Shown piece by piece: positions 37,456 to 54,840 of a DNA stretch of 64,000 nucleotides. The notes below the pieces were generated by a model that was not told where the DNA came from, searched no databases, and saw only the letters and a program-made list of their open reading frames with translations. The translations under genes were made by a program, and so were the position numbers. The stretch lies in assembly GCA_016212475.1 (NCBI GenBank), contig JACRGC010000001.1, forward strand, positions 9,862-73,861. Reading direction: 5' to 3'. The number at the start of each line of letters is the position of its first letter. The first letter of the stretch is position 1. This DNA is from Candidatus Micrarchaeota archaeon. Its GTDB lineage: Archaea > Micrarchaeota > Micrarchaeia > Norongarragalinales > SBBD01.

Positions 37456-37496
37456 AGCAAAGTTTTCACTAGCCAAAATAATAAACCTATAAGAAA

Positions 37497-37991
37497 TCAG
37501 AACTTGAATTCCTTTTCAGCGTAAACCTTCTCGCAGAAGTTGCATTGGAGCTTGAGCGGATTCCTCTCCTTGATATGAAGCTTTGGATTCCCTTCCTTGT
37601 TTGATATGCAATTAGGGTTTGGGCAATGGATTACCCCTTCCAAAACCTCCGGAAGCTTGACTTTGTACTTTTCAATTACCGTGTAATCGCGAATCACATT
37701 GATTGTTGCATATGGGGCGACAAGTGCAACTTTTTCCAAATCGCTTTTTGTCAAACTCCTCCCTTCAATTTTAATCACATCTTTTAGACCGGTTGAAGCG
37801 GAAGGGACGTTGATCAGAACAGAAACCGTCCCCTTGAAATCCTCATCAATCCCAAGGACAGTTAAGAGTTTGACTGCGGACCCCTGCGGAACATGGTCAA
37901 TTACAATCCCATTCTCGATTTTCTTGACTTTAAGCATGTCCTTGTCTTTTGCTTTCATATCATTGCGCCTTTTTTTATTTTTATTTGCCAA
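37497..37991 (-). CDS. pyrI: aspartate carbamoyltransferase regulatory subunit
   Basis: IENGIVIDHVPQGSAVKLL... and C-terminal Zn domain CPNPNCIS...CNFCEKVY. Confidence 0.85.
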   Translation of the reverse strand: MANKNKKRRNDMKAKDKDMLKVKKIENGIVIDHVPQGSAVKLLTVLGIDEDFKGTVSVLINVPSASTGLKDVIKIEGRSLTKSDLEKVALVAPYATINVIRDYTVIEKYKVKLPEVLEGVIHCPNPNCISNKEGNPKLHIKERNPLKLQCNFCEKVYAEKEFKF

Positions 37992-39268: not shown

Positions 39269-39574
39269 TTACACTAATTCGGCATTGATTTTCATAAGCA
39301 TCCCTTCCAAATCATTGTAATCGTCTTTCCTTTCTAAAATGCAGGCAATTATGATATTTGGCTCGATAATCAAATAGATTAACCTGCTCTCCTTCCCATC
39401 CAAGTTTAACCTAACCCTGAAAACCTTGGAGTAAAGTTTCGAATGGATTCTTTTGAAATGGTGGGGGTTAAGCTTAATCAAATCAATTTTGGCTCCAATT
39501 AGTTTCCTTGCCTTATCGCTAAGGCTTCTGATCTGCTCCAGAAAAGTCCTCGTGGTTTTTATTTCGAAGCTCAT
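39269..39574 (-). CDS. RelE/ParE-family toxin
   Basis: 101 aa. F.I.TTRTFLEQIRSL...KIDLIKLNP..., RLIYLIIEPNIIIACILERKDDY fits the RelE/ParE consensus. Overlaps the upstream antitoxin-like ORF by 4 nt. Confidence 0.55.
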   Translation of the reverse strand: MSFEIKTTRTFLEQIRSLSDKARKLIGAKIDLIKLNPHHFKRIHSKLYSKVFRVRLNLDGKESRLIYLIIEPNIIIACILERKDDYNDLEGMLMKINAELV

Positions 39575-39825
39575 TTGCCAAGTGCCGCCCTAAGTTCCTT
39601 CTCCCCCACGAGCTGCTTTTTCCTTAAGCTTGATTCTATTAACTTGTCAATTAAGTTTATTTCCTTTTCGGTAAAGCTTTCATCAAATTCCTTCCTATCA
39701 AACACCTTTTCCCTAACGCTTTCGTAAATTACCTCCTGGACGTTCCTATAGCCGTAATTGTGGGCATATTTCCGTGCGGCGGCAACAAGCTTTGGCGGCA
39801 TCTTGAGGTTGATTTGATTTTGCAT
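39571..39825 (-). CDS. putative antitoxin
   Basis: 84-aa helical protein immediately upstream of and overlapping the RelE/ParE-like gene. Confidence 0.4.
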   Translation of the reverse strand: MQNQINLKMPPKLVAAARKYAHNYGYRNVQEVIYESVREKVFDRKEFDESFTEKEINLIDKLIESSLRKKQLVGEKELRAALGK

Positions 39826-39994: not shown

Positions 39995-40471
39995 CTAATC
40001 TCTCAATTTAGCAAATTCTGTTTTGTTTGAGATAGCTTTCAATTGTCTTAATATTAAAGATCTTGTTTTACTTGCATTAGCTGCTTTTTTGTCTAACCTA
40101 ATATACCCCTTCACAAAACGTCTCTCATCGATTGTCCTTTTTTTGCCAGAAGAGGTTTGGTTGATAGCTCTGTGACATAAAATTCTATGAATGTTAACCT
40201 GTTCTATCAAATCCTCCAAACTTTGAGGGAGAATGTCTAACCTTTTTTCAAGATTCCCTCTAGTGAACTCCTTATTTGCGACCTTGAATTTTAATGAACT
40301 TTTTCCACTTCGATTACCGTATTTTATGGCATCTCTTTTTTCCGTAGTTAGATAACCAAGTATTGTCCGTAACATAATCTCGTCAGGTATATGCTTAATT
40401 AGTCCCTGCATTAGAGGTCTAGAACTGGGTGATATTTTTTTCTCCAAAGAGGAAATTTTATCTTCGTTCAT
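39995..40471 (-). CDS. hypothetical basic protein, translationally coupled to rtcB
   Basis: 158 aa. Its ATG overlaps the rtcB stop (ATGA). No similarity to archease or any family I recognise. Confidence 0.35.
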   Translation of the reverse strand: MNEDKISSLEKKISPSSRPLMQGLIKHIPDEIMLRTILGYLTTEKRDAIKYGNRSGKSSLKFKVANKEFTRGNLEKRLDILPQSLEDLIEQVNIHRILCHRAINQTSSGKKRTIDERRFVKGYIRLDKKAANASKTRSLILRQLKAISNKTEFAKLRD

Positions 40472-41933
40472 CCTTTTATCACTCCAACCGGCACCATCTT
40501 CGCAACAATTTTGCTAATTCCAGCTTGTTCAACCGCTCTTACAACCTCATCAACATTCTTGTAGGCTCCGCCGGCTTCTTCTGCCAATAAATCATAGCTT
40601 CCGGCCTGGATTGCTTGCCCCTTAGCTTCCATTTGCTTGACAATATCCCTTCCTGAAAATCTTCGCACAGCTTCATGCCTACTCATTACCCTTCCGGCTC
40701 CATGGCAAGAGCTTCCAAATGTCAATGCAGCGCCAGGCATTCCGCAAAGCAAATAAGAAGCGGTATTCATCGAGCCCGGAATAATCACTGGTTGCCCCAC
40801 GTTTCTGTAAGCTTGTGGAATTTCCTTCCTGCCTTTCCAAAATGCGCGCGTTGCGCCTTTCCTATGCACGCAAACTTTCTTGGTTTTGCCTTCAACCTCA
40901 TGCTCTTCAAATTTGGCAATGTTGTGGCAAACATCGTAAACCAAATCCATCCCAAGGGATTCCCAAGTGCTTCCAAATACCTGCGCAAAAGTTTCCCTAG
41001 CCCAATGCGTCATTAACTGCCGATTATTGAACGCAAAATTGATTGCAGTTCTCATTGCCTGCAAATAATCCTGCGATTCCCTAGCATGCAAAGGAGCATA
41101 TGAAAGCTCCCTATCCGGCAATTGCCAATTATTTTTCTGGATTGCTCCCATCATGGTTCGAATAAAATCATCGCAAATCTGATGCCCATACCCCCGGCTT
41201 CCGGAATGCACCATGATTGTAATTTGGCCTTCTCCAGTAATTCCAAAAGCTTTTGCAATTTCCGGATCGAAAATTTTCTCAACCCGCTGTACTTCCATGA
41301 AATGATTCCCAGCTCCAAGCGTTCCAATCTGCGGGCCTCCCCTTTTTTTTGCCATATCGGATACTTTTGAATAATCACTATCGCCAAAATAACCATTCTC
41401 CTCGCAATGATCCAAATCCTTGGATGTTGCGTACCCTTGCCGATGCGCCCATTTCAGCCCATCTGTTACAGCTTCCTCCAACTGCTGCGGGTTAAGCCTT
41501 ACTTTGCTTTTGCTCCCAACTCCGGATGGAACGTTTTCATAAAGTTTCCCAACCAGCTGCTTGAGTTTTGGGGAAACATCCCTAACATTCAAATCCGTTC
41601 GAATTAGCCTTACGCCACAGTTGATATCTTAGTCCGTTTATTTGAAACTCAATTAAACGTATAACCAACTCCACCGGGCGAAACAATCCCTTCTTCCGGA
41701 TCAAATGCAGCTACCCCTCCAATTGGAAATCCATATCCTTCATGCCCATCTGGCATAACATAGGAAGCTTCCAAAATCCCAGGAAGATGCGCAACATTTT
41801 GAGCTTGTTTTAATGTTCGATCCGTCATCATCTTATCTAGCATTTCTTTTGTTGAAACAACTCTTACCGGAACGCGCATTTCGCCCTCCTTTGGATACTC
41901 ATAAATAGCGTTTTGAAATTCTTTTGCTATCAC
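40468..41933 (-). CDS. rtcB: RNA-splicing ligase RtcB, interrupted by a 32-nt non-coding insert (exon 1 41661-41933, exon 2 40468-41628)
   Basis: The N-piece ends ...[43 protein letters not shown] then TFN-stop. Exon 2 is in a different frame and reads [17 protein letters not shown]...NVPSGVGSK...GNHFMEV...HSGSRGYGH...CHGAGR... through the C-terminus. The two pieces are colinear with full-length RtcB across the whole protein. The insert sits exactly at Y|D of GYDINCG. Confidence 0.85.
41629..41660 (-). other. candidate bulge-helix-bulge-like mRNA intron within rtcB (32 nt)
   Basis: Insert is acguuuaauugaguuucaaauaaacggacuaa. Hand fold: exonic GGUU pairs with intronic GACU (4 bp, 2 G-U). It is flanked by 3-nt bulges AU|A and AA|G, with the splice sites after the second bulge nucleotide. 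Inner helix CGUUU/AAACG is 5 bp, capped by a hairpin uuga-guu-ucaa. Confidence 0.45.
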
Positions 41934-42103: not shown

Positions 42104-43237
42104 ATGTCAAGGACAATTAGGAAAAGGCATGCTTACCGTGCAAAAAACGTCCTCCTAACAGACGTTCCAAGCATTTCAAAAACCGTAAACAAGGCAGTTG
42201 CAACCCTATCAAGCAAAGTTTCAATCAAATCCCTAGTTCCAAAGAAAAACCAAAAGAAAATAGAGGATATAAAATCCCTAGAGGAAGTCAAATCAACTGC
42301 AGATATTGCTGTTTCAACCGCCCTAATCGATCAAGTGATTGGCCAGGAGCGGGGAATTAATGTGATCCGCAAGGCCTCTTCCCAAAAGAGAAATGTTTTG
42401 CTTGTTGGAACCCCTGGAACCGGAAAGAGCATGCTTGCGCAGGCAATGGCCGAACTTATGCCAATTGAAGAGCTTCAAGACATTTTGGTTTATGCGAACA
42501 GGGAAGATGACAATGTCCCAAAAATCAAGACAATGAAAGCCGGCGAAGGAAGAAAGATGATTTCAAGCGAGAGGATGCAAACCCGCATGACCGCTGGAAA
42601 TTCCAACATGATGATGATGGGCTTCATGATGCTTTCGATGCTAATTGGGCTTTACATACTTCCGAAATATTTTGATTCAGTAATTGTTGCGGCAATGCTG
42701 ATTGGTGTTTTTCTTATGAGCGCGGCGCTGATGTTTGCAATGCAGCTAGGAAGAGGCAGGATGTTTGATGCAAGCGATACTGCAAAGCTGATAGTTGATA
42801 ATACCGGAAAAAAGAACGCTCCATTTGTTGATGCGACCGGCAGCAGGGCGGGCGCTCTTCTTGGCGATGTCAAGCACGACCCTTTCCAGTCATTCGAAGG
42901 AAAAACAATAGTTGAACTTAACGGTGAAAAATTCGCCCTTGAAAAGCTTTGGGATGATTATTCCCAAAAATACCCAATTGAAAAAGGAAAAGATGGGTAT
43001 GAGGCAATTGTACTTCCAAAGAAGGACAAATCAAAAATAACAGCTTCAAAGAAAGGCAAAAAAGTTGCTGCAAAGCTTCTAATCATAAACCGCCGGCCCT
43101 ACAAGGGAAAAATGATTGAAATAAAATCGGGCAAGAATAAACTTCTAACAACCCCCGAGCATGGCTACATTTCAAACCCATCTACAAAGAAAGCCAAAAA
43201 CCTAAGGAAAGGCGCAAAAATTTACATTGCAAACTGA
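42104..43237 (+). CDS. lonB: archaeal Lon protease LonB, N-terminal fragment (AAA+ Walker A plus TM insertion) fused to an intein-like N-terminal fragment; truncated
   Basis: Residues 1-262: LIDQVIGQERGINVIRKASSQKRNVLLVGTPGTGKSMLAQAMAELMP...ILVYAN.EDDNVPKI, TM helices, then NAPFVDATGSRAGALLGDVKHDPFQ. This is colinear with LonB up to the point where SGGLGTP..Walker B is expected. Instead it reads SFEGKTIVELNGEKF (intein block A-like, Ser1) ... KLLTTPEHGYIS (block B TxxH), then a stop. No Walker B or protease domain follows. Confidence 0.7.
   Translation: MSRTIRKRHAYRAKNVLLTDVPSISKTVNKAVATLSSKVSIKSLVPKKNQKKIEDIKSLEEVKSTADIAVSTALIDQVIGQERGINVIRKASSQKRNVLLVGTPGTGKSMLAQAMAELMPIEELQDILVYANREDDNVPKIKTMKAGEGRKMISSERMQTRMTAGNSNMMMMGFMMLSMLIGLYILPKYFDSVIVAAMLIGVFLMSAALMFAMQLGRGRMFDASDTAKLIVDNTGKKNAPFVDATGSRAGALLGDVKHDPFQSFEGKTIVELNGEKFALEKLWDDYSQKYPIEKGKDGYEAIVLPKKDKSKITASKKGKKVAAKLLIINRRPYKGKMIEIKSGKNKLLTTPEHGYISNPSTKKAKNLRKGAKIYIAN
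42890..43234 (+). other. putative N-terminal split-intein fragment (blocks A and B only, ~115 aa)
   Basis: Block A S-F-E-G-K-T-I-V and block B L-T-T-P-E-H. There are no C-terminal blocks F/G (HN+Ser/Thr/Cys) before the stop. Confidence 0.5.
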
Positions 43238-43245
43238 GGTTTTCC

Positions 43246-43683
43246 ATGAATAGCAAAGCGCAGGTTGGGATGGAATACATTCTTTTGCTTGCAGCCCTGA
43301 TTTTGCTTGCAGCTGGGATTTACAGTCTTTCCAGGTCAAACATCATTGCTCCAAGCGGAATTAGTATTTCAAATACGTCCGGAAACACCGGCAATGTGTT
43401 TGCAACAGTTGGCGGATCCGCTCCAATAATTTCAAATTTAAATGTTACAAATGGGCCTGGAATTTCAGAAGTTACAATCACTTGGGATACCAACATTGCC
43501 TCGACATCAACAGTGAACTACGGGGTTTCATCAAACCTTGGGACTCTTCTTGGTTCAAATACGGTTTTGCAAAAGCACTCTGTCAAAATTAAGGCCCAGG
43601 CCGGCACATATTTCTACAAGGTCACAAGCTGCGATCCTGCAGGAACTTGCGCATCGAGTGCAATTGAAACGCTAACTATTTGA
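43246..43683 (+). CDS. class III signal peptide protein (archaeal type IV pilin-like)
   Basis: MNSKAQVGMEYILLLAALILLAAGIY is a K-A-Q..EY prepilin-like N-terminus. Ser/Thr/Asn-rich body. Confidence 0.5.
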   Translation: MNSKAQVGMEYILLLAALILLAAGIYSLSRSNIIAPSGISISNTSGNTGNVFATVGGSAPIISNLNVTNGPGISEVTITWDTNIASTSTVNYGVSSNLGTLLGSNTVLQKHSVKIKAQAGTYFYKVTSCDPAGTCASSAIETLTI

Positions 43684-54469: not shown

Positions 54470-54515
54470 ATTCGGGCTTTGAATTTTTTCCATCCAAATA
54501 CTGTAAAACAAGGAG

Positions 54516-54589
54516 TGCCGCTGGGGTGATTTGAACACCCGACATACCGGTCTTCAGCCGGACGCTCTCCCAGGCTGAGCTACAGCGGC
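54516..54589 (-). tRNA. tRNA-Phe (anticodon GAA)
   Basis: Reverse complement GCCGCTGTAGCTCAGCCTGGGAGAGCGTCCGGCTGAAGACCGGTATGTCGGGTGTTCAAATCACCCCAGCGGCA. 7-bp acceptor stem, D-arm GCTC/GAGC, anticodon loop CTGAAGA, T-arm GGGTG-TTCAAAT-CACCC, discriminator A. No intron. Confidence 0.85.
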
Positions 54590-54740
54590 AACAACAAAAT
54601 AGGGAGAAATAATACGCTTCTTAGCAGTTAAAAAACTATTTATCGAAGCCTTTGTCAAGATTCCAACTTTTAGAGGGGATTATGATCCCGGCAAAAGTTA
54701 GAATTATGGTCTTTAGTAGGGGAACGAGCAATCGGCTCAA

Positions 54741-54756
54741 GGGGGAAACTTCCCCC
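54741..54756. promoter_or_regulatory. G5-aaac-t-C5 hairpin/palindrome between the two tRNA genes
   Basis: gggggaaacttccccc. Another member of the G5..C5 palindrome family seen at 9873, 21428 and 48531. Confidence 0.3.
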
Positions 54757-54767
54757 GTCGCCGATAG

Positions 54768-54840
54768 TGCGACTGCCGGGATTTGAACCCGGGTCCCAAG
54801 ATTGGCAACCTTGTGTCCTACCAGGCTGGACTACAATCGC
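54768..54840 (-). tRNA. tRNA-Gly (anticodon GCC)
   Basis: Reverse complement GCGATTGTAGTCCAGCCTGGTAGGACACAAGGTTGCCAATCTTGGGACCCGGGTTCAAATCCCGGCAGTCGCA. Acceptor GCGATTG/CAGTCGC, D-arm GTCC/GGAC, anticodon loop TTGCCAA, T-arm CCGGG-TTCAAAT-CCCGG. Confidence 0.85.

Follow-up and report, generated by a model that had tools for sequence, protein, structure and literature searches.

We analysed a stretch of 64,000 nucleotides (nt) from a Candidatus Micrarchaeota archaeon (contig JACRGC010000001.1, positions 9,862 to 73,861; hereafter the window), the minus strand of which carries an interrupted gene for RtcB, the established 3'-phosphate tRNA-splicing ligase of archaea. Read across the interruption on that strand, the sequence is ...ggt gga gtt ggt tat / ACGTTTAATTGAGTTTCAAATAAACGGACTAA / gat atc aac tgt ggc gta agg cta... 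(slashes mark junctions here and below), so that an insert of 32 nt, from 41660 down to 41629, separates the Tyr and the Asp codon of the GGVGY/DINCG motif. These are exactly the coordinates given in the original prediction, in which the insert was interpreted as a bulge-helix-bulge (BHB) intron. Since 32 leaves a remainder of 2 when divided by 3, the insert shifts the rtcB frame, and the upstream open reading frame (ORF; 41649..41933, GTG start) ends with ...GGVGYTFN and a stop codon. The next ORF in the RtcB frame has its earliest start, a TTG, at 41592, 12 codons past DINCG, and the metal-binding Cys of NCG is found in none of the free-standing ORFs of the window. Removal of the 32 nt yields a protein of 477 amino acids (aa) that aligns with P. 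horikoshii RtcB (1uc2) over residues 9-477 (E = 1.7e-177) and without a gap at the junction, where the peptide reads GGVGYDINCGVR (also written SPGGVGYDINCGVR). The stops and the +2 frame shift, the colinearity with archaeal RtcB over about 477 residues, and the Cys left outside every ORF had all been claimed before and are borne out here. A Shine-Dalgarno-like motif (GAGGTGA) lies directly upstream of exon 1, and the window sequence has no target-site duplication at the insert. The exons, the putative intron and its predicted structural elements are listed in Table 1.

Table 1. The interrupted rtcB gene of the window and the predicted elements of the insert and its flanks.
Feature	Position	Strand	Remarks
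rtcB exon 1	41661..41933	-	GTG at 41933..41931, 91 codons, ends ...GGVGY; aligns to 1uc2 N-terminus
Putative BHB intron, 32 nt, ACGUUUAAUUGAGUUUCAAAUAAACGGACUAA	41629..41660	-	This codon boundary holds homologous inserts in 9 further loci
rtcB exon 2	40468..41628	-	Begins DINCGVRL..., 386 codons and stop; 100% tblastn match 41628..40471
Predicted central helix (H), exon strand GGUU (Gly-Tyr codons GGU UAU)	41663..41666	-	Pairs with 41631..41634
Predicted central helix (H), intron strand GACU	41631..41634	-	Pairs with GGUU
Predicted 5' bulge A-U/A	41660..41662	-	Predicted cleavage between 41661 and 41660; unpaired in every fold of the window
Predicted intron hairpin (h')	41635..41659	-	Fold: CGUUUA 41659..41654 with UAAACG 41640..41635; apical stem UUGA with UCAA, loop GUU
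Predicted 3' bulge A-A/G	41628..41630	-	Predicted cleavage between 41629 and 41628; in the minimum free energy fold both A pair with U41667 and U41668

Gene callers split the rtcB gene of the window into ORFs of 94 and 374 aa, both of which have RtcB Pfam matches. Taken at face value, this annotation would describe a split enzyme, in which the two polypeptides assemble as active RtcB. However, the second ORF has its first possible start downstream of the Cys-containing segment, which is therefore missing from both pieces, and loci with two inserts (see below) have a middle exon of about 30 codons that lacks a start, which makes a split enzyme extremely improbable. An intein as the identity of the 32-nt insert is ruled out, since the insert shifts the frame and contains stops in the upstream frame.

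The RtcB proteins and loci nearest to that of the window come from Candidatus Micrarchaeota metagenome-assembled genomes (MAGs). One Logan contig, assembled from the raw reads SRR12113407 (L030), is 100% identical to the window across 5,346 nt, insert included; it represents the same organism and thus a second assembler rather than an independent biological case. The source is uncultivated, and metagenome assemblies can hold chimeric junctions, so the 32 nt might in principle be an artefact of sequencing or assembly that does not exist in the real genome. The chance of this is vanishingly small, as the insert was recovered by the second assembler and as many unrelated metagenomes and MAGs contain homologous ones. 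The closest full-length relatives, with 83-88% aa identity (L001-L003, P0001-P0004), have no insert. A further relative (P0007), with about 84-85% identity at the protein and 76% at the DNA level, is annotated as a fragment of 374 aa, just as in the window; at the identical codon boundary, its contig (L029) has an insert of 33 nt, ACUUUUAUUUGCUAAGGCAAGUGGGAGGACUAA. The interior of this insert is unrelated to that of the window, and again it forms a hairpin.

More interrupted genes were recovered by scanning metagenomes for a TAA followed by GAY ATH AAY TGY GGN GT, that is for an in-frame stop directly before DINCGV, a pattern that an intact rtcB cannot match. The scan gave 56 matches, 8 of which are interrupted rtcB genes. 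The inserts at this first site (GG.G[YF]/DINCG) are 33 nt long in L048, 38 nt in L064, 34 nt in L068 and 27 nt in L084; in a more distant family, whose first exon ends in GLCGF, they measure 28 nt each in L038, L057 and L081, and 30 nt in L074. Site-1 inserts thus range from 27 to 38 nt, with lengths that leave 0, 1 or 2 when divided by 3. In all of them the position is fixed and the sequence is not conserved, while the hairpin and a 4-base-pair (bp) helix between exon and intron are kept, and the RtcB proteins of their hosts are down to about 48-50% identical to that of the window. The comparison with related rtcB loci that the original prediction had called for therefore finds the insert position conserved in nine other loci, with compensatory changes (see below).

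A second site was found in the same gene. In a Micrarchaeota MAG, RtcB is called as fragments of 66 and 400 aa (P0077; 66% identical by search and about 64% when the spliced product is compared by BLASTP), and at the corresponding locus (L031, 2449..2480) HEGY and GFPIGG are separated by an insert of 32 nt. Inserts at this site 2 (H.GY/G[FL]P) are also present in L048 (17 nt), in L068 (39 nt) and in L038, L057, L074 and L081 (29-31 nt); none of the site-2 inserts was picked by a pattern on its own sequence. The one in L068 is in frame, yet it contains a stop, and the 17-nt insert of L048 has a stem of 3 bp and a loop of 4 nt. The total comes to 17 mini-inserts of 17-39 nt in 11 rtcB loci from 10 distinct organisms, which belong to the Micrarchaeota, to an Aenigmatarchaeota-like group and to other uncultivated archaea. 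Six genes (L048, L068, L038, L057, L074 and L081) are interrupted at both sites, which leaves the start-less middle exon of about 30 codons mentioned above. The earlier reading was therefore understated: rtcB has a second site, both sites are occupied in some genes, and the inserts extend over more than one DPANN lineage. Gene callers fragment such genes in various ways, into 94 + 374 aa, 66 + 400 aa or a single 369-aa piece, and label some of the products 'partial'.

The junctions were fixed from the protein alignment alone, before any structure was tested. We defined the BHB register as a central helix H in which exon positions -6..-3 pair with intron positions -6..-3, flanked by a 5' bulge of two exon nt and one intron nt and by a 3' bulge of two intron nt and one exon nt; this follows the 3-nt/4-bp/3-nt definition (PMC5829648) and the canonical geometry of tRNA 37/38 introns. 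H has 4/4 pairs at 17/17 junctions, compared to 2.2% of 34,000 placements drawn at random from these mRNAs. If an adjacent intron hairpin (h') of at least 3 bp is required as well, 15/17 junctions qualify, compared to 0.17% of the random placements and to 0-1 of 204 with either or both junctions slid. At site 2, where the protein permits 2-5 equivalent junctions per locus, exactly one of them gives 4/4 pairs, and this is always the one with canonical bulges. The cut position on the 3' side lies 2 nt past the helix in 17/17 cases. On the 5' side the bulge is unpaired in 15/17 minimum free energy (MFE) folds, and the predicted cut coincides exactly with the conserved protein junction. When both bulges are forced open and H is kept closed, the resulting conformer lies 0-2.2 kcal/mol above the MFE in 17/17 cases and equals it in three. 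The recurring register is more than chance.

Covariation was counted in ungapped, junction-anchored alignments from which the hairpin tips had been removed and to which no structure was fitted. The two sites were kept separate, a joint MAFFT alignment having been dropped because their exons are not homologous. At site 1, 100% of the cells are paired (10-58% when slid) and 12 cells have changed on both sides, with a covariation score of 0.55 (slid at most 0.11). At site 2, 94% of the cells are paired (25-62% when slid), 12 cells have again changed on both sides, and the score is 0.75 (slid at most 0.25). The compensatory change within H at site 1 is from GGUU:GACU to GGCU:GGCU (L084), and at site 2 the variants are AAGG:CCUU, AGGG:CCCU, GGGG:CCCU and GGGG:CUCC. 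The pair and register counts are not to be read as probabilities, but they lend strong support to a predicted BHB structure.

These data also bear on translational recoding, in which the ribosome would bypass the insert, in the manner of T4 gene 60, or shift frame without any RNA splicing. A short hairpin insert with an in-frame stop a few codons in does resemble the gene 60 coding gap superficially. However, site-1 inserts come in all three phases, so that no single frameshift rule would serve them all, and those whose length is a multiple of three carry in-frame stops. Bypass fares no better: the take-off codon would be UAU or UUC and the 3 nt before exon 2 are UAA, an unmatched pair, and the model predicts no pairing of exon 1 with the 3' end of the intron in the BHB register, yet this pairing is conserved. 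In T4 gene 60, the take-off and landing codons are reportedly matched (GGA and GGA). We therefore regard recoding as highly improbable.

RNA folds were computed in ViennaRNA with exon flanks of 20-30 nt. The inserts of the window, L029 and L031 each fold as a single long hairpin composed of an exon-exon helix, the central helix, a 3-nt 5' bulge and the intron hairpin. For the window, this agrees with the earlier fold by hand in the pairing of GGUU with GACU, in the 5' bulge AU/A and in the intron hairpin. Two details did not stand: the intron helix beside the 5' bulge has 6 bp rather than 5 (CGUUUA with UAAACG, plus an apical stem of 4 bp), and the 3' bulge AA/G lies outside the MFE. In the window, the exon-exon helix beside the 3' bulge is weak, with 1 bp in the register of a 3-nt bulge and 3 bp in that of a 2-nt bulge, and a longer exon-exon helix is located further out from the bulge. 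In the genes of the L029 type, the third bulge nucleotide, a G, can wobble with U, which results in a 2-nt 3' bulge. A fully canonical 3' bulge is found in L038, L057, L074 and L081, in L084, and at site 2 of L048 and L068. The Aenigmatarchaeota-like family has the textbook helix-bulge-helix-bulge-helix (hBHBh') structure, with an outer helix of 9-10 bp. Judged by these predicted folds, the window is among the less canonical of the 17 cases.

Several points weigh against a spliced BHB intron in the window. Its 3' bulge is absent from the MFE fold, where pairing of AA with UU lengthens the central helix to 6 bp; the junction bulge that the original prediction expected at the 5' side thus forms in the ground state, whereas the one at the 3' side is reached only at +1.5 kcal/mol, the cost of the strict two-bulge conformer. 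The closest intron-bearing relatives of the window likewise lack the strict 3' bulge in the predicted ground state, and the strict hBHBh' arrangement is limited to the Aenigmatarchaeota-like family and a few others. The samples are small (10 and 7 junctions) and include some close relatives, and the shuffle controls are not probabilities. Moreover, the scan pattern forced a UAA at the 3' end of the intron in 8/10 site-1 cases, so that the conservation of UAA and of its G.U pair in the central helix is partly due to ascertainment. A spliced, 100%-identical full-length protein was not found in the protein collection, nor was a spliced transcript. Finally, a second intact rtcB may exist elsewhere in the genome, the check having covered the 64 kb of the window, in which there is no other copy.

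The deviation of the 3' junction from a strict 3-nt bulge in the Micrarchaeota family, together with the indirect assignment of the enzymes, would also fit removal of the insert at the RNA level by another pair of nuclease and ligase, or a hairpin with another role in processing or regulation. Against this stand the 3-4-3 BHB layout and canonical cleavage register at all 17 junctions, as well as the textbook hBHBh' with its 9-10 bp outer helix in the Aenigmatarchaeota-like family. We know of no other archaeal system that precisely excises 17-39 nt, and we consider another RNA pathway unlikely.

The coding sequences speak to the question of whether the interrupted genes are functional. Removal of the introns leaves an ORF of 466-477 aa with no further lesion in the seven complete loci (the window and six others). 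Between the window and L029, the ratio of nonsynonymous to synonymous differences (pN/pS) is 0.25 in exon 1 and 0.14 in exon 2, crude values with pS near saturation, which indicates purifying selection on both rtcB exons. The L074 family groups with Aenigmatarchaeota-like sequences; no insert interrupts its nearest relatives, which are 468 aa long and 90-94% identical. In two intronless near-twins (L088 and L089; 91-94% aa identity), the DNA shows the insert to be precisely absent at both sites. Here the GLCGF codons are GGC CTT TGC GGC TTC and GGC CTG TGC GGG TTT, as opposed to GGT TT[GA] TGT GGT TTC in the four intron-bearing genes of the L074 family. The outer helix accordingly has 9/9 consecutive pairs in the four intron-bearing genes versus no consecutive pairs in the two twins, and the central helix, which is 4/4 with the intron, would be 3/4 in the twins. 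Similarly, the Gly codon at H is GGU in 9/10 site-1 intron-bearing genes, the exception being L084, which has GGC together with a compensating change in the intron. Within the Micrarchaeota, both genes with the intron have GGT at this codon, as opposed to GGC or GGA in four relatives that lack it. The synonymous sites of the exons thus co-vary with the presence of the intron.

These results leave little room for a pseudogene, in which a recent small insertion such as a palindromic mini-element would have inactivated rtcB and left the gene to decay. The stop after GGVGYTFN in the unspliced frame and the lack of an insert in the closest relatives (87-88% aa identity) are what one would expect of such an event. 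However, the gene has no other lesions and the spliced ORF is full length in all seven complete loci, with the low pN/pS values given above; the codon boundary is identical in 10 loci whose RtcB proteins are down to about 48-50% identical to that of the window, with the fold kept throughout; synonymous sites in the exons track the intron; and the window has no target-site duplication. A decaying gene is therefore very improbable. Of the explanations set aside above, recent insertion and assembly artefact were those that the original prediction had itself entertained, and the conservation of the site, the absence of further lesions and the second assembly make both unlikely.

In a neighbour-joining tree, intron-bearing and intronless genes are interleaved at the tips of both clades; the tree is crude, has no bootstrap support, includes partial sequences and indicates patchiness only. 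Because the introns are patchy among near-identical genes, they would be subject to frequent precise loss and/or to lateral gain. Repeated loss and gain has likewise been argued for the cbf5 introns (PMC2738675).

Taken together, the recurrence at a fixed site, the covariation, the reachable two-bulge conformer, the signs of purifying selection and the second assembly all support the interpretation originally put forward, and the 32-nt insert in rtcB is very probably a genuinely spliced BHB intron. In the transcript, GGUU at the end of exon 1 would pair with GACU near the 3' end of the intron to form a 4-bp central helix between the 3-nt 5' bulge (AU/A) and a 2-3-nt 3' bulge (AA/G), while the remaining intron would form a hairpin and exon 1 would pair with exon 2 further out. 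EndA, the archaeal splicing endonuclease, would then cut inside both bulges, and RtcB would ligate the exon ends, which carry a 2',3'-cyclic phosphate and a 5'-OH, to give UAU/GAU and restore the active-site motif GGVGYDINCG; the excised intron would probably be circularised. That EndA cleaves and RtcB ligates the rtcB pre-mRNA is what we infer from the layout of the junctions. Since RtcB is the tRNA-splicing ligase of archaea, synthesis of new RtcB would then probably need pre-existing, inherited RtcB, provided that the genome has no other ligase and no intact copy of rtcB. With less assurance, we lean towards a broader view in which one or two EndA/RtcB-dependent introns occupy the active-site codons of the ligase in several DPANN lineages, RtcB synthesis would be autocatalytic, and the two sites would be recurrent hotspots of intron gain and loss.

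The nearest known parallel is the BHB intron in the cbf5 pre-mRNA of Crenarchaeota, which was reportedly described by Watanabe in 2002 and Yoshinari in 2006. It is likewise short, resides in the gene of an RNA-processing enzyme, often has a relaxed motif, is patchily gained and lost, and occurs in lineages with an EndA of broad substrate range. Its hosts are Aeropyrum, Sulfolobales and Desulfurococcales (Yokobori 2009; PMC2738675). The introns described here differ in their host gene, in their occurrence in DPANN lineages, in having two insertion sites with up to two introns per gene, and in that the host gene encodes the splicing ligase; moreover, splicing of cbf5 is experimentally supported, whereas that of rtcB is predicted from sequence. 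With the BHB introns of archaeal tRNAs and rRNAs they share the 3-4-3 geometry, the helix between exon 1 and the 3' end of the intron, and the cut after the second bulge nucleotide, and their lengths of 17-39 nt fall within the 11-175 nt of tRNA introns (PMC2738675). In contrast to tRNA and rRNA introns, however, they lie in the coding context of an mRNA, where codons constrain the exon side of each helix and synonymous positions keep the pairing intact. Broad substrate ranges have been described for the epsilon2 EndA of the Ca. Micrarchaeum type and for loop-bearing EndAs of DPANN archaea (PMC12397907; PMC5829648), and EndAs of broad specificity accept relaxed BHB motifs (PMC5829648), to which the less strict 3' bulge of the window and of the L029-type genes corresponds. 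For pre-mRNA BHB motifs, the latter paper cites the cbf5 studies only.

A more distant parallel is seen in the unconventional mRNA splicing of XBP1 and HAC1 in eukaryotes, where a very short, non-spliceosomal intron (26 nt in XBP1) is also removed from a coding region with a change of frame. In metazoa, a ligase of the RtcB family joins the exons (PMC8718801). In contrast to the rtcB introns, cleavage is by IRE1 on twin stem-loops and not by EndA on a BHB, the system is a regulated stress switch, and the spliced message does not encode the ligase.

RtcB is also host to inteins. Two relatives (L004 and P0027) have one at DIN/C, 9 nt downstream of intron site 1; in L004 (1495..4347), from a Micrarchaeota relative, the intein has 473 aa, with LAGLIDADG-like motifs recognised by eye. 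RtcB of P. horikoshii (PH1602) is likewise the extein of a DIN/C intein. Intein and intron are alike in being removable insertions that strike one active-site motif, where rtcB is most conserved. They differ in that the intein keeps the frame, extends over several hundred codons and leaves the protein, whereas the 32-nt insert breaks the frame and would leave via RNA. A site-1 intron might break the recognition sequence of the homing endonuclease of the intein and so shield the gene from invasion. Intein and site-1 intron occur together in no locus seen, in a sample far too small for inference.

The comparative searches covered rtcB only. For the rest of the window, a permissive BHB scan gave several hundred chance matches, and a strict filter reduced these to 19 candidates, including rtcB as the positive control; its thresholds were set after the rtcB introns were known, and it misses 2/17 of these. 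No second BHB-split gene was found among the 10 of 19 strict-filter candidates that were inspected, five of them by Pfam, so the scan does not establish rtcB as the only split gene of the window. One candidate (37474..37505) turned out to be the boundary between a PyrI and a HAD gene, those in UbiA, GT4 and T2SSF genes lie inside intact single ORFs, and for the remaining inspected ones the upstream halves look, by eye only, like out-of-frame translations. Rfam and ARAGORN detect two tRNAs only in the window, tRNA-Phe(GAA) and tRNA-Gly(GCC) (54515..54840, minus strand), both of which are intronless.

Downstream of rtcB, an ORF of 158 aa without Pfam match (39995..40471, minus strand) has 4 nt of overlap with rtcB at the stop codon and probably forms part of the same transcript. 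It is not recognisable as archease; L029 has an ORF of 152 aa at the equivalent position. Beyond it lies a two-gene cassette (39269..39825, minus strand), which may be a toxin-antitoxin pair: the first ORF, of 84 aa, has no Pfam match, and the second, of 101 aa, matches the Gp49 and ParE toxin families below threshold. The divergent neighbour on the other side (42104..43237, plus strand) is LonB-like, with an N-terminal P-loop ATPase part and membrane helices. Its similarity to Lon ends after ...GDVKHDPFQS, beyond which it has a TPEH-containing tail of about 115 aa and no protease domain; the same truncated form is present in L004 (287..1393). This neighbour could be a split gene or carry a split intein, although the specific idea that it ends in an intein half is unsupported, Pfam finding no Hint or intein domain. 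An adjoining ORF (43246..43683, plus strand) has a below-threshold match to a class III (archaeal pilin-type) signal peptide.

BHB introns as such are a known kind. The host gene, the lineages, the two introns per gene and the self-dependence appear to be unreported: we found no report of rtcB introns in the literature searched, which leaves out most papers in subscription journals. Protein-coding BHB introns of archaea have so far been known from one gene, cbf5, in one phylum. If our interpretation is true, the rtcB introns would, after those of cbf5, be the second family of mRNA introns in archaea and would give prokaryotes a counterpart of XBP1/HAC1-type splicing. They would extend archaeal mRNA splicing to DPANN and provide a natural mRNA substrate for EndAs of broad range. 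Because gene callers split the intron-bearing genes, rtcB looks truncated or missing in DPANN annotations, which affects inferences on genome completeness and metabolism. The synonymous sites of the exons would be held by RNA structure, and introns that are switched on and off between genes 91-94% identical would make rtcB a tractable system for the gain and loss of BHB introns. Finally, a ligase whose own message needs the ligase would constitute a self-referential circuit, which raises questions of inheritance, bistability and regulation.

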